From Oligoflexales bacterium (GTDB taxonomy: Bacteria > Bdellovibrionota_B > Oligoflexia > Oligoflexales > Bog-1112), in assembly GCA_017985985.1 (NCBI GenBank), contig JAGNWK010000019.1, positions 1 to 39,226 of the forward strand: a DNA stretch of 39,226 nt, in the 5' to 3' direction. A program made the translations under genes and the position numbers. Shown piece after piece: positions 3,352 through 38,048 of this stretch. The first letter of the stretch is position 1. Each line of letters begins with the position of its first letter. The notes beneath the pieces are model-generated. The model had not been told where the DNA came from and searched no databases. It was given only the letters and a program-made list of their open reading frames with translations.

Positions 3352-3405
3352 TCCAATTATACTAAGAAACTATCCCACAAGTCATCTAGCACTCTTTTCG
3401 TCAGT

Positions 3406-4523: not shown

Positions 4524-4678
4524 CAATGTCATTTGGTTAAGGTGGAATTCCTCACCTGCCTGTCTTGTTTTAACTCGATACCTCTCGACTTCGCTCGAGG
4601 TGACAGCGTTTTAACTGGTAGGGACGACGTCACCCCGAGCGAAGTCGAGGGGTATCGGAGCTTAACCGAATGACATTG
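4524..4678. mobile_element. MITE-like nested palindromic element (family 2), flanked by an 8-bp direct repeat GCGATCAG
   Basis: The outer inverted repeat is caatgtcattYggttaag. The inner inverted repeat is ctcgataccYctcgacttcgctcgRggtgac with a ~35 bp spacer. The element is immediately flanked by ggcgatcagg on both sides, which looks like a target-site duplication. Confidence 0.6.
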
Positions 4679-5323
4679 GCGATCAGTGGAGCTCATACGT
4701 AACCATCAATTACAATCTATAAATAGAGAAATAAAATGCGTGGAAAAAGTATTTTAAGTCTTTTTCTCCTATTTATTAGCCCTAACGCCTTCTCCAATAA
4801 AACAGTACAAAGACATCCGTCTTTAGCCCACGCTCCTTCCGCAACTCCGTAGATTGCACCAAGAAAGAGCTCAGAACGAATTGTTTTTATCCGTGACAGA
4901 AGAGATCGCTCTATTAGTTTACCACATCTACTCGCTGCGCTAGTTCAAAATGGCCAAATCATCTCTACAAGCGAACTATCGACTGTATATTTACTAAGTC
5001 AAGCACAGGTCCGACTCTATTTGCCACATTTTAGGTCTGAATTAGCCAGTCGTTTCTGAGATTGCCACAACTGCCATTCTTACCTCACCCAACCTTTACT
5101 ACTTTACCTGATTTGCCCCCAAAATAGCACCCTTGTGGGATTGGAGCTTAATTCCATTTCTATAAAACTTTATGCGAGAGACAAAATTATGCGGGAGACA
5201 AAACAATGACCATATCTTATGTCAAGGCAAGATTTCTAAAGCAACAGAAGCACTTTTTAAGATCTGTTGCTGTTAAAATCGACAATGGCATGAACTATTT
5301 AGCTAAGCGATCATTACCAATGA

Positions 5324-10861: not shown

Positions 10862-10919
10862 CACCCCCACCATCAAACAAGGAGGGGGCGAAGGAAACCA
10901 GCTGCGCAGTTTGTCCCCC
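10862..10919. repeat. REP-like palindromic element (family 4; core GGAAACCAGCTGCGCAGTTTGTCCCC) in the NfeD-stomatin intergenic spacer
   Basis: The core shares the palindrome ..aaccagctgcgcagttt.. with copies at 27097, 30393, 31931, 33677 and 36201/36259. Confidence 0.55.
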
Positions 10920-11679: not shown

Positions 11680-11811
11680 GAGGGCTGTCCAGGTCACACA
11701 TAAGCCTATGACTTACCTAGATAAATTAGATTAACTTTCTTTTCCTAAATATAATCCCCATAAGTTCCGAAGTTCTCCCTTAGAGATGTGTATAGAAAAA
11801 GAGAGAATTTC

Positions 11812-13362
11812 ATGCTTATGAGAAGGCTCAAGTTCATAGTCGCGCATATAGGCCGGTTTGTTCTGGTTCCGGCTGTTTTATCCTCTTTTTTGCTTTCCTG
11901 TAATGGAAAAAATTCGAGCGAGATCATCGATTCTATAGATGCAGCTCAAGTTCAACCGGATCAAAGCTCAAATAGCGATGACGCCTTTGCCAGCACAGAC
12001 CTTGCCAACGTCCAAGTTGTTAGCAAAGGATCTAGTATAAAAAACCTCCTGACTCTCCCTGACTGTGTTCCTGCCCAATATGGAAAAGTGATGTTTAGAA
12101 GTCTAGACTCTAAATTTCTCTATTGTCATAACCCCAAGCAGTGGGATGAAATCGACCTCAGAGGCAACGGAGGAGTTGCAGGGGCTGCAGGAACTCAAGG
12201 TAAGGCTGGTATTGACGGTATCCGGGGAGAAGACGGTCCAACCGGTCCTCAGGGCGATCAGGGAGCCAGGGGAGAGACAGGTGTCCCTGGTGTACAAGGG
12301 ATAAAAGGCACTCAAGGTCCTCAGGGAGAAAGGGGACCTGCAGGGGCTGTAGGGGCTGCTGGAGCAACAGGGCCTAAGGGAGATCAAGGTGTTCAGGGTC
12401 TTGAAGGACTTAAGGGTCCCGACGGTCCCCAAGGACCAGTTGGAGCAGCTGGAAACCTGGCTGGAGATAAGGGAGATGCAGGGAGTGCAGGCCCAGAGGG
12501 AGATCAGGGTATACCAGGCGTTGCCGGTGACAAAGGGGCAACCGGACCCAAGGGAGCAACCAGTACTGTAATTGGAGCTGTAGGGGATACAGGTCCGCAA
12601 GGTACACAAGGTTTGCCTGGAACTAGCGGTACAGAACGTGGCGACGTAGGGGCAATGGGTATCAAAGGCATTCAAGGCATTCAAGGCATTGCAGGCATTC
12701 AAGGCATTGCAGGCATTCAAGGCATTCAGGGCCTCAAAGGCTTTCAAGGGCCTCAAGGTCTGCAAGGGGTGAAAGGAGCAGAGGGTCCTACTGGTTCCCA
12801 AGGTGCAGTTGGAGACAAGGGATTGACAGGAGCTCAGGGAGGTAAGGGCCCTCAAGGGAGCCAGGGTGTAGTTGGTGACCAAGGTCCCCAAGGGGCAAAA
12901 GGAGCTACGGGTCTGTCAGGAAAATCTCTTCTTGTCAAAGACAGTTCGTCTTCTACCTTGTTGGGTGCATTCGTTTCCTATGGCAACCCATTTGACTCAG
13001 CAGATAGAGAGACCATCCTTGTTTACAATGATGCAGCTGATCTTGTTTTTCCCGTCAGTTCAAGTGGAAAACTTATCGATGTACCGAGCTCAACAAGCTT
13101 CATGTACTGGGAGAAAGACGGGTGCACTGGAGCTCCTTCCATTCAACTCCCTATGCCACTTGTCTTCGAGATAGCTTTCACAAGAGGCTCTGAAACTTAT
13201 AGGGTCGTTTCTCTCAATCGACCTTCTGTTCGGTCTTATACAAATGCATCCAACAGCTGTATCACTGTACCTAGCCAGCAGATCACCAACACCTATCTTG
13301 TCGAATCCACAAGTGACATCCCTAGCACGTACGCAGCACCACTCACCTACATCGTTGAATAG
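11812..13362 (+). CDS. Collagen-like triple-helix repeat lipoprotein with a non-collagenous C-terminal domain
   Basis: Signal peptide with lipobox (LLSC). There are about 250 aa of uninterrupted Gly-X-Y (GNGGVAGAAGTQGKAGIDGIRGEDGPTGPQGDQG...). A perfect 9-bp tandem repeat (ggcattcaa/ggcattgca) encodes GIQGIQGIAGIQGIAGIQGIQG at 12667-12732. A ~150 aa C-terminal globular part follows. The ORF-track start at 11788 is GTG; ATG 11812 is preferred. Confidence 0.75.
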   Translation: MLMRRLKFIVAHIGRFVLVPAVLSSFLLSCNGKNSSEIIDSIDAAQVQPDQSSNSDDAFASTDLANVQVVSKGSSIKNLLTLPDCVPAQYGKVMFRSLDSKFLYCHNPKQWDEIDLRGNGGVAGAAGTQGKAGIDGIRGEDGPTGPQGDQGARGETGVPGVQGIKGTQGPQGERGPAGAVGAAGATGPKGDQGVQGLEGLKGPDGPQGPVGAAGNLAGDKGDAGSAGPEGDQGIPGVAGDKGATGPKGATSTVIGAVGDTGPQGTQGLPGTSGTERGDVGAMGIKGIQGIQGIAGIQGIAGIQGIQGLKGFQGPQGLQGVKGAEGPTGSQGAVGDKGLTGAQGGKGPQGSQGVVGDQGPQGAKGATGLSGKSLLVKDSSSSTLLGAFVSYGNPFDSADRETILVYNDAADLVFPVSSSGKLIDVPSSTSFMYWEKDGCTGAPSIQLPMPLVFEIAFTRGSETYRVVSLNRPSVRSYTNASNSCITVPSQQITNTYLVESTSDIPSTYAAPLTYIVE

Positions 13363-13397: not shown

Positions 13398-14612
13398 CTA
13401 AGGTTGATCGTAAACAAATGGAGAGGAGAAATAATGATTAGTCCTTGCGTAGGGATGCAGTGGGGGGGGAGGGGGAGGCAAAATCGCTGTATTCCCATAA
13501 AGAGACCCTGCAGTCGCTGCCGTTGATACAGGAGGAAGCTCAGCCTCGACATTTCGCTTGATAGCAAAAACTAAAATACCCATAGGCTTTGTTGCAGATA
13601 GTCGAATATAAAATCGTTCTTGGTCATGAGAAAGGTAACTTGTCCATGTTGAAGATGCCGCTTCGACAAACAGCTCCATGTAAGGATACAGTGCTGGCAC
13701 CATATCCCGATATTGGGCAAGGCTAGCTCTTGTGAGCTGCAAAGCCTGGTAGGTGGATAGATCACCTTTAACTGTGCTCATGGCATAGCGATGAGCATGA
13801 ATGGAGGTCATAGCAACCGCATCGTGAATTCTATGCCCAAAAAAATTGTACTTATCTAGATTAAGTAAATGAGCGTCGATGCGAAATGGGGATGTGGGCA
13901 GAAGAGGTTCATCGAGTACGAATCCCCCTACGCTTTTACGTTTTATACACCCTAGAAGAAGCCTGGGATTTACCAAAATCCTGACGTTTGTGGCTCTGTT
14001 AAAAATTCCCATTAAAAGCCCATCTAGAGCAGGCTTCTGATCTCGAGGCACACTGTCATAAAGCCAGGTCTCAGCGACACTCTGAGCTATGATTTTGTCA
14101 CCGGTCGACTTCAATGGACAAGACACCCTTGTTAGAAGCTGATAGACAGCTACACTAGTTCCTACAAGAATGGCACAGGCCGAGATAAAACTGACGATAA
14201 TGCCAAGATAAGTCGTAAACGAGGCTAGGTTTGTCTCCTGGTTAGTGGATATATTGGCATTAGAAGAGGGACTAGCTGCTGCCGTGACGTTTACTGATAC
14301 ACCGATGGGTGATGGTGATGGTGATGGTGATGGTGATGGTGATGGTGATGGTGATGGTGATGGTGATGGTGATGGTGATGGTGATGGTGATGGTGATGGT
14401 AAAACTTCTTCAGGTGTTTGTGCATGAGCTTCACCAAAATTTGAGAACCAGTGCAAGGACAACTGTGTAGCTACCTGCAAGGAAGAGAGTTCGCGAGAAA
14501 ACTGCGGAGTTGGTTTCTCCCAAGAAAGAAACGCTAAGCAGATGAGAAGAAAGAATAAAAAAATATTTCCTTTTGACATTTTTTTCGATGGACAGTTTTT
14601 TGCCTGCAACAT
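13398..14612 (-). CDS. Hypothetical membrane protein with an (SP)16 linker
   Basis: Signal peptide (MSKGNIFLFFLLICLAFLSW from ATG 14579), then (SP)16 encoded by (tcacca)n, a TM helix and a ~260 aa C-terminal domain of unknown function. A poly-Pro tail is encoded over a G8 tract at 13462-13469. Confidence 0.5.
   Translation of the reverse strand: MLQAKNCPSKKMSKGNIFLFFLLICLAFLSWEKPTPQFSRELSSLQVATQLSLHWFSNFGEAHAQTPEEVLPSPSPSPSPSPSPSPSPSPSPSPSPSPSPSPIGVSVNVTAAASPSSNANISTNQETNLASFTTYLGIIVSFISACAILVGTSVAVYQLLTRVSCPLKSTGDKIIAQSVAETWLYDSVPRDQKPALDGLLMGIFNRATNVRILVNPRLLLGCIKRKSVGGFVLDEPLLPTSPFRIDAHLLNLDKYNFFGHRIHDAVAMTSIHAHRYAMSTVKGDLSTYQALQLTRASLAQYRDMVPALYPYMELFVEAASSTWTSYLSHDQERFYIRLSATKPMGILVFAIKRNVEAELPPVSTAATAGSLYGNTAILPPPPPPLHPYARTNHYFSSPFVYDQP
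14308..14400. repeat. Hexanucleotide microsatellite (GGTGAT)~15.5, coding for the (SP)n linker of the 13398..14612 CDS
   Basis: Perfect tandem hexamer visible in the sequence. It preserves the reading frame. Confidence 0.9.
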
Positions 14613-22076: not shown

Positions 22077-23624
22077 TTACTTATGTTTAATTTTTTGCCA
22101 GTAGGAATCAAACTGGAAAGAGGGGGAGTGATTGCCTCGATGACAGGTGAGGCAGACCTCTCGAGCAGCGAGGGATCCAGGAGCAGTATCCCTCTTGAGA
22201 GGATTTTTGACATGTTCCGCCCTGGCTCCATGACAGTTCTCACATTGAACCCCTTTGAATTGGGGGGTCAACTGCTCTGAAATAAAACCACCTCGACTTT
22301 GAAGACCCAAAACATGGCAGGAGACACAGTCGGAATCTTCATTTTTTTGCTTTTTTTGCAGAGTCTCATAAGCCTTTGCATGATGAGAGTCCTTCCAAAC
22401 GGCAGCCGCCTGAACATGACAGGAGGAACAGGCTTCTGCCCCTGCAAAAGGTGAGCTTTTCAGATCCTCTCGCTTCTTTAGTTGCTGCTTTTGAAAATCC
22501 TCTGCCGTTTCTTTTGTATAGGTCTCTAGTAGGGATTTAAGAGGAGAGACCTCTTCATAGTCTTGAGTCAACCACGTCACATAGATAAGGTTTGAATCTT
22601 TTTTTATGAACCCTTGGATGGGGACCGTTAAAAACTTCGATTCCTCTTTTTTTGTTACGCTCTCCTTTTGGAAAAGCCCGTTAAGAGTCGATGATTCTAA
22701 ACTGCTCTCCTCAGACTTCAAAATTGCTGCAAGGGAAAGGGCTTGGTTGCGACGAAGAGCCCCCCCCCGCAAGACACCCTTACCTTCCAAAGGGACCATA
22801 CGAATAGCTTTAGTGTTGAACGCCGACTCCTGACGAGAAAGTCGCACAAGAAGATCTTCATTCGTCTTCTCAGCATCCACAGCACGGTCTTCCGTTCGTT
22901 TGTCCCTTGAACTAGAGCTGATGATTTCGGCAAAAAGACCACTTTCATCAATCTTCGTCAAAACTTCATCCGGTCCTGAAAACAGGAGCACCGAAAAAGC
23001 ATCCCGGTGAGAAGCTAGTATGCTTTCCCAAGATTTTCTGAGTTCTGGGCCCCAGGTAAGGACTTGCGATTCTAGGCGCTCATCCCACACAAAACCGAGA
23101 ATAAGTGTCGTTCCCACCTGCCCCTTACTGAGAACGATCTGGGAAGAAAAATTTTTCAGGCCTAAAAAAGAAGAAGATTTTGATATTGCTGTTTTGACAT
23201 TACTGAGAACGAAGGGTCTGCGACTGGCAAGGAGGTCTGTATCCGGATGGGCAGAGAGTAGGGCAAGAAGTTCTTCCTTGTTCAGCAAAGCTGCATCTGG
23301 CTGCAGCGAGTCCAGTGCCTGAATGAGGTAGCGACTCTTGATCGGATTGCGATCCTGCCTATCGATTTGATCACCTAGGTCAAACAAGAAAAGAGAGGGT
23401 TCAGCAGCCCTCTCCCTTGCTACAAGAGTCGCTAGACGTCTCACCCCTCCCAGATCAGAACGGGGGTCACAGCCACAAGGGGCCAAGTCCCCTTGCAGGC
23501 TCCCATAAGCTAACCAAGGTGGATCAGTTGGCTCCCTATCTTTGCTAGCGGCAAAGTTAGGTCCAAACAAGATGAGCGAGATAACGAATAGAAAAAAATA
23601 TTCCCGCAAGCCCCCCCCTAACAT
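22077..23624 (-). CDS. Secreted multiheme c-type cytochrome (4 CxxCH) with a large N-terminal non-heme domain
   Basis: Signal peptide. The C-terminal ~130 aa contains CSSCH, CVSCH, CENCH and CLTCH. The N-terminal ~380 aa has no heme motif (..DLAPCGCDPRSDLGGVRRLATL..). A G8 tract follows the ATG directly (atg tta ggg ggg ggc) and a G9 tract lies internally at 22760-22768. Confidence 0.65.
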   Translation of the reverse strand: MLGGGLREYFFLFVISLILFGPNFAASKDREPTDPPWLAYGSLQGDLAPCGCDPRSDLGGVRRLATLVARERAAEPSLFLFDLGDQIDRQDRNPIKSRYLIQALDSLQPDAALLNKEELLALLSAHPDTDLLASRRPFVLSNVKTAISKSSSFLGLKNFSSQIVLSKGQVGTTLILGFVWDERLESQVLTWGPELRKSWESILASHRDAFSVLLFSGPDEVLTKIDESGLFAEIISSSSRDKRTEDRAVDAEKTNEDLLVRLSRQESAFNTKAIRMVPLEGKGVLRGGALRRNQALSLAAILKSEESSLESSTLNGLFQKESVTKKEESKFLTVPIQGFIKKDSNLIYVTWLTQDYEEVSPLKSLLETYTKETAEDFQKQQLKKREDLKSSPFAGAEACSSCHVQAAAVWKDSHHAKAYETLQKKQKNEDSDCVSCHVLGLQSRGGFISEQLTPQFKGVQCENCHGARAEHVKNPLKRDTAPGSLAAREVCLTCHRGNHSPSFQFDSYWQKIKHK

Positions 23625-24046
23625 CAGCTTCCTAGTGGAAATACCTGAGAAGTTCTCCCTAGTTCCTCCTTGCCTGAGACGTTCACCCTAGTTTTTGAAT
23701 AGCTAACCCGGACCCTTGACCCGCGACCAAGTCCATTGGGCAAGTTGGGCTTCTCCAAAGTCAGTTCGAGGCTGGCAATATCCGCATAGCGAATCAGCAG
23801 TTCGTCAGCAAAGTGGGCCAAGACCGATTCTATAAGATTGAACGAACGCCCCTCTAAGATTTCTTCTGCAGCATGCATGAGTTTGCCATAATCCAGAGTC
23901 GAAGAGATCTCATCACGAAGCAAGGCAAAATCTCGTTCCGTCAATTTTGCACGGATTGAGATCAAAACATCCTGACCAGTTTTTTTTTCTTCTGGAAAAA
24001 TACCCAGCCTCATAAAGACTGGGTAATCTAAAATTTCTAAAACCAT
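23624..24046 (-). CDS. folB: Dihydroneopterin aldolase
   Basis: MVLEILDYPVFMRLGIFPEEKKTGQDVLISIRAKL..DYGKL.. fits the FolB signature. Its stop overlaps the cytochrome start by 1 nt (ATGA). Confidence 0.7.
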   Translation of the reverse strand: MVLEILDYPVFMRLGIFPEEKKTGQDVLISIRAKLTERDFALLRDEISSTLDYGKLMHAAEEILEGRSFNLIESVLAHFADELLIRYADIASLELTLEKPNLPNGLGRGSRVRVSYSKTRVNVSGKEELGRTSQVFPLGS

Positions 24047-24970: not shown

Positions 24971-25106
24971 GATTTTCTTATCTCCTAAAATAAAGCTGGA
25001 TAAGCCAGCCATAATGCAGAAACAGCCTGCATGTTATACTATAAGTCGCTATGAGGCAAAGTAAAGGGGCTAGCTTAAAATTCTTACAGGCAGGGCCTTC
25101 ATCTTA

Positions 25107-25227
25107 GGAACCATCCCACAAGTCGTATAGCAAGGCATTGGGGAGCAATCAGTGCAGTTTACTGGATGGTAAATGAGCAGCGCAGCGACGAAAATAACGC
25201 AGCTACACGACTTGTGGGATGGTTCCT
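25107..25227. mobile_element. MITE-like element family 1, copy A (~121 bp, 21-bp terminal inverted repeats)
   Basis: Terminal inverted repeats aggaaccatcccacaagtcgt ... acgacttgtgggatggttcct with an ~80 bp core. Its terminal ..cctag supplies the TAG stop of the adjacent CDS 25226..25726. Confidence 0.7.
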
Positions 25228-25726
25228 AGGCCGTCGACAGCATGCTTTTCAAAAGGAGCCGCTGATAGGTAGAGAGGGTCATAAGCCCTTCGTCCTCAAA
25301 AAGACTGGAGTGCACGCGAGGTCTGGTTAAAACCTGCTGTGGTTCGTAAATGTTTACAAGATCAAATGGCTGCCCCTTTCGCATAAAGACATCCTGATCC
25401 ACAATTTTTTCACTCTGCGAGACTAGCCAACCATGAGGCGATTGTTCAAAAAGCCAGCCGAGCGTATTTCTTGGCCTAAGATAAAAATACCTTCTCGAAA
25501 ACGCAAGCAGTCCAGACTCGTAAAAAAGAGGAGCTGAAGAGTGCTCTCGAGGAAGCTCTTTGAACTGAGTGTAGATGGAGTGTTTCAGCTTCAAAAAAAT
25601 CTTATCTCGCAGCTCTTCATCTATCAGCAGATTGTAGCGAACAGATAATGCCGACGACAAGGGATCACCTGATTTTGAATCTGGCCGCTTCTTCTCAATT
25701 ATAAAATGCCTAAGTCGCTCCAACAT
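25226..25726 (-). CDS. Hypothetical protein (166 aa)
   Basis: ORF with no recognisable domain. Its 3' end abuts or overlaps MITE copy A, so its C-terminus may have been altered by the insertion. Confidence 0.4.
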   Translation of the reverse strand: MLERLRHFIIEKKRPDSKSGDPLSSALSVRYNLLIDEELRDKIFLKLKHSIYTQFKELPREHSSAPLFYESGLLAFSRRYFYLRPRNTLGWLFEQSPHGWLVSQSEKIVDQDVFMRKGQPFDLVNIYEPQQVLTRPRVHSSLFEDEGLMTLSTYQRLLLKSMLSTA

Positions 25727-27096: not shown

Positions 27097-27122
27097 TGGG
27101 GAACCAGCTACGCAGTATCCCC
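27097..27122. repeat. REP-like palindromic element (family 4)
   Basis: ggggaaccagctacgcagtatcccc lies immediately after the stop of 26794..27081. Confidence 0.5.
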
Positions 27123-34687: not shown

Positions 34688-36187
34688 ATGTCTGATCTTA
34701 TGAATAAGCTTATTTCCTTGTGCAAAAGAAGAGGTTTTATTTTTCAGAGCAGCGAAGTCTATGGTGGACTGAAGTCCTGCTACGACTACGGCCCTCTCGG
34801 TGTTGAGCTCAAGAAGAACATTGCTCAAGCCTGGTGGAAGAACATGGTCTATGAGCGAGACTCCATCTATGGGATGGACGCTTCGATCCTCATGCACAGC
34901 GATGTTTGGAAAGCTTCTGGCCACCTTGCTAATTTCAGCGATCCCCTTGTCGACTGCCTCACATGCCAAGAGAGATTCCGTGCTGATAAGGCTCCAAAAC
35001 ATGAGCCAGGACTGGATATAACCTACGGACTAAAGGAGAAGAAAAAAGGACAGGTCGGCCCCCAAGGCTACGTCTGTCCACGCTGTAGCTCCCCCTCTCT
35101 CAGTGACGAGAGACAGTTCCGTTTGATGTTCCGCAGTACAATAGGCCCGGTAGATCCTCTGAACGAGCTCGTCGACAAACACTATGGTCAACTCAGTTTA
35201 GCTGAGTTTAAATCTAAACTGAGCGAACTAGAGCTCTCAGCTAGCAGCGTTTACTTGAGACCTGAAACTGCTCAGGCTATGTTCGTCCAATTTCTTAATG
35301 TCCAGCAAAGCATGTCTGCTAAAGTTCCGTTCGGAATAGCTCAGTGTGGCAAAGCCTTCCGTAATGAAATCATCACCGAACATTTCATATTCCGGTCTTG
35401 TGAGTTCGAGCAGATGGAACTCGAATTCTTCTGTGAACCTGGAAGCCAAACGGAATGGATGGAATACTGGAAGCAAGAACGTATGAACTGGCATAAGATC
35501 TACGCTCGTCATCCAGAAAACTACAGACTCCGAGCCCACGACAAGGGGGAACTGGCCCACTACTCCGATGGTTGCTTCGACGTTGAATATAAGTACCCCT
35601 GGGGATGGGATGAACTCGAGGGCATTGCGTCTCGAACTGATTTTGATCTATCGAGTCACAGCAAGAAGTCCGGAGCCAAGCTCAGCTACTTCGACCCCCA
35701 AAAAACAGACCCAGCAACTGGCAAAACTGGGTGGAGGTATACACCTTATGTGATTGAACCCTCTCTTGGACTCACACGTTCTGTGCTCTGCTTCCTCCTC
35801 GACGCTTACTGCGAAGAAGGGAAACCAGCAAAGGAAGGAGAGGAAGGAGGAGACAAAACCAGAATCGTACTCAAACTCCATCCTCAACTCGCTCCTTACA
35901 AAGCAGCTGTGCTGCCTCTTGTCAAAAAAGATGGTCAGCCAGAATTTGCTAAAGACCTCGTCTCCCAGTTTAGGAAGAAGGGAATCCCGGTGAGTTATGA
36001 CGAGAATAATTCTATTGGAAAGCGCTATGCACGACACGATGAAATTGGTACCCCGTTCTGTATAACGATCGATCAGAAAACCATCGAAGATGGATCTGTG
36101 ACCCTAAGAGATCGTGATAGCACCCTACAAGAGCGTCTCCCTGCGGGAGCTGCCTTGGAGCGTGTGCTTGAACGCCTCAACACCTAG
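34688..36187 (+). CDS. glyQS: Glycine--tRNA ligase, alpha2 (class II, eukaryote/archaeal-like) type
   Basis: ..LCKRRGFIFQSSEVYGGLKSCYDYGPLGVELKKNIAQAWW.. is the canonical N-terminus of dimeric GlyRS. Class II motifs and a C-terminal anticodon-binding domain are present. The preferred start is ATG 34688; the ORF-track start at 34670 is TTG. Confidence 0.85.
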   Translation: MSDLMNKLISLCKRRGFIFQSSEVYGGLKSCYDYGPLGVELKKNIAQAWWKNMVYERDSIYGMDASILMHSDVWKASGHLANFSDPLVDCLTCQERFRADKAPKHEPGLDITYGLKEKKKGQVGPQGYVCPRCSSPSLSDERQFRLMFRSTIGPVDPLNELVDKHYGQLSLAEFKSKLSELELSASSVYLRPETAQAMFVQFLNVQQSMSAKVPFGIAQCGKAFRNEIITEHFIFRSCEFEQMELEFFCEPGSQTEWMEYWKQERMNWHKIYARHPENYRLRAHDKGELAHYSDGCFDVEYKYPWGWDELEGIASRTDFDLSSHSKKSGAKLSYFDPQKTDPATGKTGWRYTPYVIEPSLGLTRSVLCFLLDAYCEEGKPAKEGEEGGDKTRIVLKLHPQLAPYKAAVLPLVKKDGQPEFAKDLVSQFRKKGIPVSYDENNSIGKRYARHDEIGTPFCITIDQKTIEDGSVTLRDRDSTLQERLPAGAALERVLERLNT

Positions 36188-36200
36188 CCGCCCCCACCTA

Positions 36201-36311
36201 CCTAGCAAGGAGTGGTTTGGGGAAACTGCGCAGCTGGTTCCCCAAGAAAACGCCTGTTCTAGCAAGGAGGGGTTTGGGGAAACTGCGCAGCTGGTTCCCC
36301 AAGAGAACCCC
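36201..36311. repeat. Two tandem REP-like palindromic elements (family 4) downstream of glyQS
   Basis: ctagcaaggagtggtttggGGAAACTGCGCAGCTGGTTCCccaagaaaacg occurs twice in tandem (36201-36252 and 36259-36311). The core is a perfect palindrome around CAGCTG. Confidence 0.7.
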
Positions 36312-36343
36312 TAACCGCAAGAGCCGCAGAAGAAAGAAAAGAA

Positions 36344-37804: not shown

Positions 37805-38048
37805 AACTCGAGACCCATTCGACTTCGTCCGCCTATGGTGGACTTCGCTCAGGGTGACAGGGCTTTAAGTAATAGCGACAAAAGTCACCCCGAATGAAGT
37901 CGAGGGGTATCGACCCTTAACTGAATGACATCACTCCCCCAGCTCTTTTAGGTGACAGGGCTTTAAGTAATAGCACAAACGTCACCCCGAGCGAAGTCGA
38001 GGGGTATCGATCCTTAACTGAATGACATCACTCCCCCAGCTCTTTTAT
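37805..38048. mobile_element. Family-2 palindromic element with a tandemly duplicated ~95-bp right half
   Basis: ggtgacagggctttaagtaatagcRacaaaMgtcaccccgaRYgaagtcgaggggtatcgaYccttaactgaatgacatcactcccccagctctttta occurs twice in tandem, preceded by a left arm with cgacttcg..ggacttcgctcagggtgac. It lies between dbpA and the prohibitin gene. Confidence 0.6.

Follow-up and report, generated by a model that had tools for sequence, protein, structure and literature searches.

Poly-G tracts of Campylobacter, mostly G9 to G10, switch at rates of 1e-4 to 1.6e-3 per division (PMC8355987), and Campylobacter jejuni is without functional mismatch repair (PMC8355987). Phase variation denotes switching that is reversible and of high rate, with a historical detection threshold of about 1e-5 (PMC11868660). 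In other bacteria, homopolymer indel rates increase with run length (PMC5854121); in Vibrio, such runs have been proposed, mostly without proof, as contingency loci, and mutation-accumulation lines gave a direct measure of their mutability (PMC5854121). For Oligoflexales, a literature search turned up no account of phase variation. Here we describe three poly-G tracts of 8 to 9 nt in two genes—one for an UshA-like tetraheme cytochrome and one for a lipoprotein—on a 39,226-bp contig of an NCBI metagenome-assembled genome (MAG) labeled Oligoflexales bacterium; the window analyzed is this whole contig. We consider it reasonably probable that the tracts are incidental G runs over conserved Gly-Gly sites, mutable and kept in frame by selection.

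Positions of the tracts and integrity of their host genes

A homopolymer scan confirmed all three tracts of the initial annotation, each of them poly-C on the plus strand and poly-G on the minus strand, which is the coding one, and added a fourth long G/C run that had been overlooked. The tracts are as follows:

23611 to 23618, minus strand: G8 tract, directly after ATG TTA of the cytochrome open reading frame (ORF)
22760 to 22768, minus strand: G9 tract, cGG GGG GGG Gct, inside the cytochrome gene
30651 to 30659, minus strand: G9 tract, tGG GGG GGG Gct, inside the lipoprotein gene
13462 to 13469, minus strand (G8 on the plus strand): C8 tract, within a stretch encoding PPPPPP toward the 3′ end of ORF 13398..14612

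The host ORFs (22077..23624, 515 amino acids [aa]; 30505..31941; and 13398..14612, all on the minus strand) are intact. On the minus strand, positions 23624 to 23607 read ...AGGAAGCTG ATG TTA GGGGGGGG C TTG CGG..., and the surroundings of 22760 to 22768 read ...TTG CGG GGG GGG GCT CTT.... The extra G's in the tracts come from flanking codons, CGG or TGG before GGG-GGG and GCT or GGC after it. GC content was measured at 45.4% contig-wide (45 to 48% locally), in place of the ~47% first given.

Homopolymers in such data can be sequencing or assembly artifacts, for example, poly-G from two-color chemistry or homopolymer miscalls. One related contig, L024 (JAPPIL010000163.1), begins with C49 (positions 1 to 49), a poly-C contig end typical of the two-color-chemistry poly-G artifact and a contrast to the internal tracts of the window. 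The tracts described here lie within long ORFs that stay in frame across conserved motifs, however, and Logan contigs from four Sequence Read Archive (SRA) runs match them base for base. An artifact is extremely improbable and was rejected, given intact frames and the recurrence of the tracts in independent assemblies.

Tract length across independent assemblies

The initial annotation read the tracts as slipped-strand contingency loci and counted invariant tract length as evidence to the contrary. As true contingency loci, the tracts would reversibly switch the cytochrome and the lipoprotein on and off, or up and down, in part of the population, and selection would maintain them for this function. 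At the consensus level, length was invariant across the MAG and the four SRA runs. The cytochrome tracts were compared in three runs and the lipoprotein tract in two. Three contigs over the start-proximal tract—L001 (SRR25018404, the contig occurring in 3 samples), L002 (SRR25018406), and L003 (SRR21875703)—match the window with 100% identity, G8 included; L001 covers, in addition, the internal tract of the cytochrome gene, at the same length of G9. At the lipoprotein locus, L085 (SRR25018404, 3 samples) is identical to the window and has G9, while L084 (SRR21875704) differs by one single-nucleotide polymorphism (SNP) in 2,402 nt and has an unchanged G9. Length was therefore constant in every independent assembly, even in the SNP-diverged contig, which argues against contingency switching; high-frequency reversible length variation, the defining trait of phase variation, was absent at the consensus level. 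Since it draws on consensus assemblies and not on read pile-ups, this comparison has low power.

To keep the search from favoring one tract length, exact products of neighboring genes (folB, the M48 peptidase gene, and an upstream gene of 239 aa) served as queries. The exact-protein look-ups returned only 100%-identical contigs and the one with the single SNP. No frameshifted or truncated near-identical product of either gene was found among 5.8 billion protein clusters, a further point against switching.

The SNP in L084 lies at 31272 (T in the window and C in L084, read on the minus strand) and is nonsynonymous in the lipoprotein gene; apart from it, the MAG and two distinct SRA accession series show a clonal organism. 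Contig breaks at the tracts, as a sign of length heterogeneity, were considered and rejected, since the end of L001 falls at an exact dispersed repeat of 36 nt. L084 and L085 end inside an element resembling a repetitive extragenic palindrome (REP), not at a tract.

Conserved residues at or beyond the G9 tracts

The two genes that carry the tracts are annotated by NCBI as KA436_04580 (cytochrome) and KA436_04625 (lipoprotein):

22077..23624, minus strand: cytochrome gene, UshA/5′-nucleotidase-like domain (PCGC motif) plus tetraheme c554-like domain, exported
30505..31899, minus strand: lipoprotein gene, 464 aa, GTG start, lipobox LIAC

The internal G9 of the cytochrome gene encodes R286-G287-G288-A289 of a GxGVLRGG motif, in which G283 is invariant and L285 and R286 occur in at least 90% of 27 aligned sequences. 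This motif ends the conserved UshA-like domain and is followed by a variable linker. About 20 Oligoflexales-type orthologues keep L-R-G-G and encode it with CGN GGN GGN codons, with a longest G run of 5. Conservation of the glycines through mixed GGN codons had also been named in the initial annotation as evidence against contingency loci; it was found for the internal G9, in a test of low power given that the nearest cytochrome orthologues are only ~33 to 43% identical.

Runs of at least 8 nt recur elsewhere in the same gene. The orthologous genes hold five of them, all at other positions, in ~104 kb, compared with 18 in ~1.19 Mb of flanks (~3-fold-higher density). In one case (L039), AGG GGG GGG covers the R-G-G of a GDLRG motif. 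This recurrence at other sites points to a Gly-rich family that is prone to generating G runs, and the occurrence of runs in distant orthologues suggests that Arg/Gly-Gly motifs seed them by synonymous drift. The tracts of the window would then be incidental synonymous runs, permitted by conserved Arg/Trp-Gly-Gly-Ala motifs, and would represent genuine lineage-specific synonymous states of Gly-Gly codons in two intact exported-protein genes. Intrinsically slippage-prone as they may be, they would be held at in-frame length by purifying selection. We infer both the slippage proneness and that the tract state itself is not selected for.

A +/-1 slip at the internal G9 is predicted to yield a 301- to 304-aa product lacking all four heme motifs, with both frameshifts reaching a stop within 16 to 19 codons. 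Given these early stops and the position of the tract at a domain/linker boundary, RNA slippage or programmed frameshifting might produce an N-domain isoform of that length without the heme domain, in the style of dnaX tau/gamma. The G run is missing here from the orthologues, however, so that such an isoform would not be a family feature, and in transcriptome-wide data RNA polymerase slippage insertions have been reported only in A/T runs, with G and C runs described as "not prone to slippage" (PMC5574713). No stimulatory structure is evident, although none was sought. We regard RNA slippage as very improbable.

For the lipoprotein gene, GTG at 31899 is a more likely start than position 31941 of the initial annotation, and gives the product MKSLLVSISFLLIAC with a lipobox; this reads MKSLLVSISFLLIA-C, in agreement with the pattern [LVI][ASTVI][GAS]C, and its Cys is invariant in family alignment A3. 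A word-indexed search matched the lipoprotein only to itself, while a full HMMER scan recovered a small divergent family (best identity, 41%; mostly 17 to 23%) in which the C terminus is most conserved. The G9 tract encodes W-G-G-A at codons 414 to 417 of 464. Downstream of it lie a near-invariant R418 and an invariant T444-H445-D446, so a slip would remove a conserved core, not a dispensable tail. A +/-1 slip at either G9 tract is predicted to cut away conserved and probably essential parts of the product; at G8, an alternative TTG start codon would blunt the effect. Truncation ahead of conserved cores at both G9 tracts is a placement that favors contingency switching.

The lipoprotein gene lies between the arms of an inverted repeat of 71 nt (87% complementary), at 30402 to 30472 and 31918 to 31988. 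The arms are opposite copies of a dispersed REP-like hairpin (GGGGAAAC...TGCGCAGCTGGTTCCCC), each with an identical 25-nt insert. The contig bearing this repeat has no recombinase gene.

The start-proximal G8 tract and the choice of start codon

Two features frame the interpretation of the G8 tract:

23607..23609, minus strand: in-frame TTG, the NCBI start, 1 nt past G8, giving a 510-aa product (MREYFFLF...)
23624..24046, minus strand: folB (dihydroneopterin aldolase), whose TGA stop shares 1 nt with the cytochrome ATG (TGATG)

The tract was originally placed directly after the start codon, which is true if translation begins at ATG 23624-23622; NCBI instead starts the gene at TTG 23609-23607. 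The ATG start gives 515 aa (a second gene call, P0080) and is also used in the Logan gene calls, whereas the TTG start gives 510 aa (P0001, NCBI). Counted from the ATG, G8 makes up codons 3 to 5 (GGG GGG GGc), and a +/-1 slip is predicted to leave a peptide of only 22 or 37 aa. Counted from the TTG, G8 falls in the 14-nt spacer between folB and the start codon. In the family alignment, it sits in the unconserved n-region of the signal peptide.

That the tract lies outside the coding sequence, in the spacer before TTG 23609, where it could act as a Shine-Dalgarno (SD)-like element, is a tentative possibility. It accords with the 510-aa product annotated by NCBI, with the normal signal peptide of that product (MREYFFLFVISLILFG...), with the comparably short n-regions of homologues, and, on general grounds, with the capacity of GGGGGG to pair with the anti-SD sequence by G-U wobble. 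The contig's own SD-like motifs, weak AGG/AAGG sequences, lie 6 to 9 nt upstream of starts, however, whereas the G tract is just 1 to 3 nt from the TTG and is the only such element there; the ATG has AGG at 6 nt. Both the second gene caller and the Logan calls take the ATG, which is usually favored over TTG, and the TGATG overlap is presumably a common coupling arrangement. RNA structure coupling G8 to the ribosome-binding site was also considered, but none was predicted around the site (z = 0.64). An Rfam scan of the contig found one tRNA only and no family over the tracts. We conclude that ATG is probably the start. The placement of G8 at codons 3 to 5, with an ATG that fits the SD pattern of AGG at 6 to 9 nt better than the TTG does, is in line with contingency switching.

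The claim that a single-base change at G8 would turn the gene on or off is nevertheless weakened, since TTG would still yield a full protein with a signal peptide. Because TTG would permit this at any tract length, G8 is at most a partial switch, and this fallback counts against contingency switching. In an elaborate variant of the switching idea, G8 may toggle between a strong ATG and a weak TTG start, as a volume control rather than an on/off switch; if TTG is the start, tract-length changes would be near-silent or would tune translation. The start-codon question is separate from that of mechanism and cuts across the readings considered here.

Frequency of long G runs relative to chance

The number of such tracts expected by chance was initially put at ~0.1, which is 4 to 5 times too low; nulls based on composition, codon usage, and relatives give ~0.4 to 0.7. 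An excess over chance persists, but it is modest (P about 0.003 to 0.02, significance that is post hoc for a single 39-kb contig chosen for the feature itself) and confined to sense-strand G. In order-0/1 Markov simulations, the 4 observed G/C runs of at least 8 nt compare with 0.54 to 0.55 expected (P about 0.003). Under Markov orders 3 to 5, which are partly trained on the tracts themselves, 1.6 to 1.7 are expected (P about 0.1). A codon null, in which all 34 protein sequences were fixed and synonymous codons were resampled from the contig's own usage, gave 1.18 expected G+C runs of at least 8 nt against the 4 observed [P(>=4) = 0.02]. Two runs of this null for sense-strand G of at least 8 nt gave expectations of 0.39 [P(>=3) = 0.0085] and 0.42 (P = 0.003). 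By base, the codon null gave the following:

Sense-strand G, at least 8 nt: 3 observed, 0.42 expected, P = 0.003
Sense-strand G, at least 9 nt: 2 observed, 0.16 expected, P = 0.014
Sense-strand C, at least 8 nt: 1 observed, 0.81 expected, not significant
Sense-strand A, at least 8 nt: 7 observed, 5.4 expected, not significant
Sense-strand T, at least 8 nt: 1 observed, 3.7 expected, not significant

The C8 in the poly-Pro run is statistically ordinary. Genome-wide tolerance of homopolymers was rejected, since runs of the other three bases, A, T, and C, are as frequent as the protein-constrained null predicts. A codon-pair bias toward GGG-GGG was rejected as well: GGG makes up 23% of the Gly codons on the contig (and CGG 9% of the Arg codons), and the three GGG-GGG pairs among ~51 Gly-Gly dipeptides equal the 0.23-squared expectation.

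Related loci (80 loci, 1.3 Mb) hold ~0.7 runs of at least 8 nt per 39 kb, so that the density in the window is ~6 times higher. The relatives themselves fall below the expectation for independent, identically distributed bases (7 versus 10.4 expected in 384 kb; 16 versus 40 in 914 kb). A few related loci (L005 and L049) are equally or more dense, which places the window in the upper tail without making it unique.

One of these loci, L049 (JAOUFO010000111.1, 6.1 kb, 61% GC), has five G8 to G10 runs on one strand between positions 498 and 5268, a density far above that of the window; the orthologous cytochrome gene contains two of the five. It may hold genuine poly-G loci or be an error-prone assembly.

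Incidental runs or contingency loci

Several observations weigh against our preferred reading of incidental runs over conserved Gly-Gly sites. The excess of sense-strand G runs of at least 8 nt persists with proteins held constant, and the ratio of observed to expected sense-strand G runs climbs with length (1.1 for G5, 1.6 for G6, 2.8 for G7, 7 for G8, and 12 for G9). Long G/C runs are reportedly removed from genomes by selection (PMC5574713) and are usually depleted in the relatives, so that three in 39 kb, each in a gene for an exported protein, are unexpected under pure drift. The rarity of the Arg codon CGG makes CGG-GGG-GGG-GCT only ~0.5% likely a priori. At all three tracts, a +/-1 slip would remove conserved sequence. 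Drift explains the G-specific excess, the rare CGG, and the disruptive placement incompletely, and consensus assemblies cannot show minority length variants.

The same G-restricted excess and ~6-fold density are part of the case for contingency switching. With lengths of G8, G9, and G9, the tracts reach the hypermutable range of ~7 to 8 nt or more and match the hypermutable tracts of Campylobacter (PMC8355987). Mutagenic 9-mer tracts also occur in lipoprotein genes of free-living, repair-proficient Vibrio (PMC5854121), and a surface-type protein encoded on the contig contains a second perfect simple sequence repeat (SSR), (TCACCA)x15.5. The products of the tract genes all have a signal peptide or a lipobox, but a hydrophobic N-terminal segment (an exported or membrane look) is found in ~20 of the contig's 34 ORFs. 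Exported status is thus uninformative for the tract genes, and a bias toward exported proteins was rejected as a tract signal. The post hoc selection of the window likewise tempers the excess, and one of the two target genes is widely conserved, with the folB stop overlapping its start. Neither mutS nor mutL is present on this one contig of the MAG. Taken with the constant tract length, the contingency reading is doubtful. Its full form, in which poly-G contingency switching acts on an UshA-like tetraheme cytochrome and a lineage-restricted lipoprotein in an Oligoflexales lineage that is possibly host-associated, is unlikely.

Identity and neighborhood of the cytochrome gene

The C-terminal part of the cytochrome protein is tetraheme cytochrome c554-like (Pfam Cytochrome_C554, E = 1e-15; PDB 1bvb, E = 5e-18), and the 515-aa ORF contains four CxxCH motifs. 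The N-terminal ~350 aa are conserved and have weak PDB profile similarity to 5′-nucleotidase. The protein matches NCBIfam NF041198 UshA_like_PCGU with 147.9 bits (E = 3.7e-43), below the 275-bit equivalog cutoff. Its PCGU-type motif reads APCGCDP, with C50, G51, and C52 invariant in the 27-sequence family alignment A1. Judged by sequence, it is a relative of the NF041198 family, not a certified member. It shares with that family an N-terminal UshA-like P-C-G-(U/C) domain and a C-terminal multiheme c554-like region but falls below the equivalog cutoff and has Cys where some family members carry selenocysteine.

Homologues with 25 to 43% identity occur in Oligoflexales, SAR324, Motiliproteus, and others. 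Among GTDB species representatives, the closest cytochrome relatives are 36 to 39% identical, while six cytochrome peptide patterns gave no relative in Joint Genome Institute (JGI) metagenomes. An M48 peptidase gene and folB precede the cytochrome gene on the same strand, forming a putative M48-folB-cytochrome operon with the cytochrome gene last. In its position directly after folB and its wide conservation, the cytochrome gene differs from typical strain-variable surface genes. To our knowledge, a phase-varied redox protein, as opposed to a surface glycan or adhesin gene, would be unusual.

Other repeats and features of the contig

The ORF at 13398..14612 (minus strand), which encodes a signal-peptide protein and also carries the C8/poly-Pro tract, contains (GGTGAT)x15.5 with 100% identity at 14308 to 14400; on the coding strand, (TCACCA)n encodes (Ser-Pro)n. 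This in-frame SSR is a stronger candidate for length variation by slippage than the poly-G tracts.

Several dispersed elements lie between genes. An intergenic palindromic element of ~125 nt, resembling a miniature inverted-repeat transposable element (MITE) or REP and bounded by terminal inverted repeats of 27 to 28 nt, occurs at 25105 to 25229 and 28267 to 28392, with partial copies near 2423 to 2460, 3364 to 3399, and 32878 to 32915. A 36-nt stretch is identical in both ~125-nt copies, and L001 ends at this element. A 57-nt REP-like hairpin element is present in tandem at 36198 to 36312, between the genes for a class II aminoacyl-tRNA synthetase (34670..36187) and a DbpA-like helicase. Single hairpin copies at 10892 to 10915, 27097 to 27122, 33676 to 33706, and 30396 to 30424 lie after several other genes, and the element may be a terminator or a REP family. 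A 97-bp intergenic unit is found twice in tandem at 37853 to 38047 (94% identity), with a third, diverged copy (63 to 75%) 33 kb away at 4599 to 4695.

The contig also encodes a cluster of eukaryote-like secreted proteins at 27288 to 28253 (plus strand), 28399 to 30384 (minus strand), and 11788 to 13362 (plus strand). One is an OTU-like cysteine protease that has a signal peptide, another is a leucine-rich-repeat protein of 661 aa, and the third contains collagen triple-helix repeats; the set hints at a host-associated lifestyle of this Oligoflexales lineage.

Comparison with known poly-G systems

If the tracts were contingency loci, simple-sequence phase variation would extend to an uncultured environmental lineage related to predators and to an extracytoplasmic redox protein, and contingency loci could be spotted in MAGs. 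Finding homopolymers in frame in a consensus assembly is not, however, enough to demonstrate phase variation, and conserved Arg/Trp-Gly-Gly motifs can give G8 to G9 runs by synonymous codon choice alone.

The tracts resemble those of Campylobacter, Neisseria, Haemophilus, and Helicobacter in being intragenic coding-strand runs of G8 to G9, one of them right at the 5′ end of its ORF, in genes for exported proteins. As in the Campylobacter type, a +/-1 change would cause a frameshift, and the tracts outnumber chance, though modestly and in a post hoc test. They differ in that the reversible length variation of those systems (PMC11868660) was absent from every independent assembly compared here. 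Of the two targets, one is a conserved redox protein whose gene directly follows folB, and not a glycosyltransferase, a restriction-modification protein, or an adhesin; G8 has a back-up start, and the residues under the internal G9 of the cytochrome gene are conserved across the family. A second point of comparison is the 9C run of Vibrio cholerae tcpC (PMC5854121), one of the isolated 8- to 9-nt runs in ordinary genes, lipoprotein genes included. Mutability was measured there, whereas here we infer it. At present, the isolated mutagenic mononucleotide runs of repair-proficient bacteria are a better match to the tracts of this Oligoflexales contig than the contingency loci of Campylobacter.

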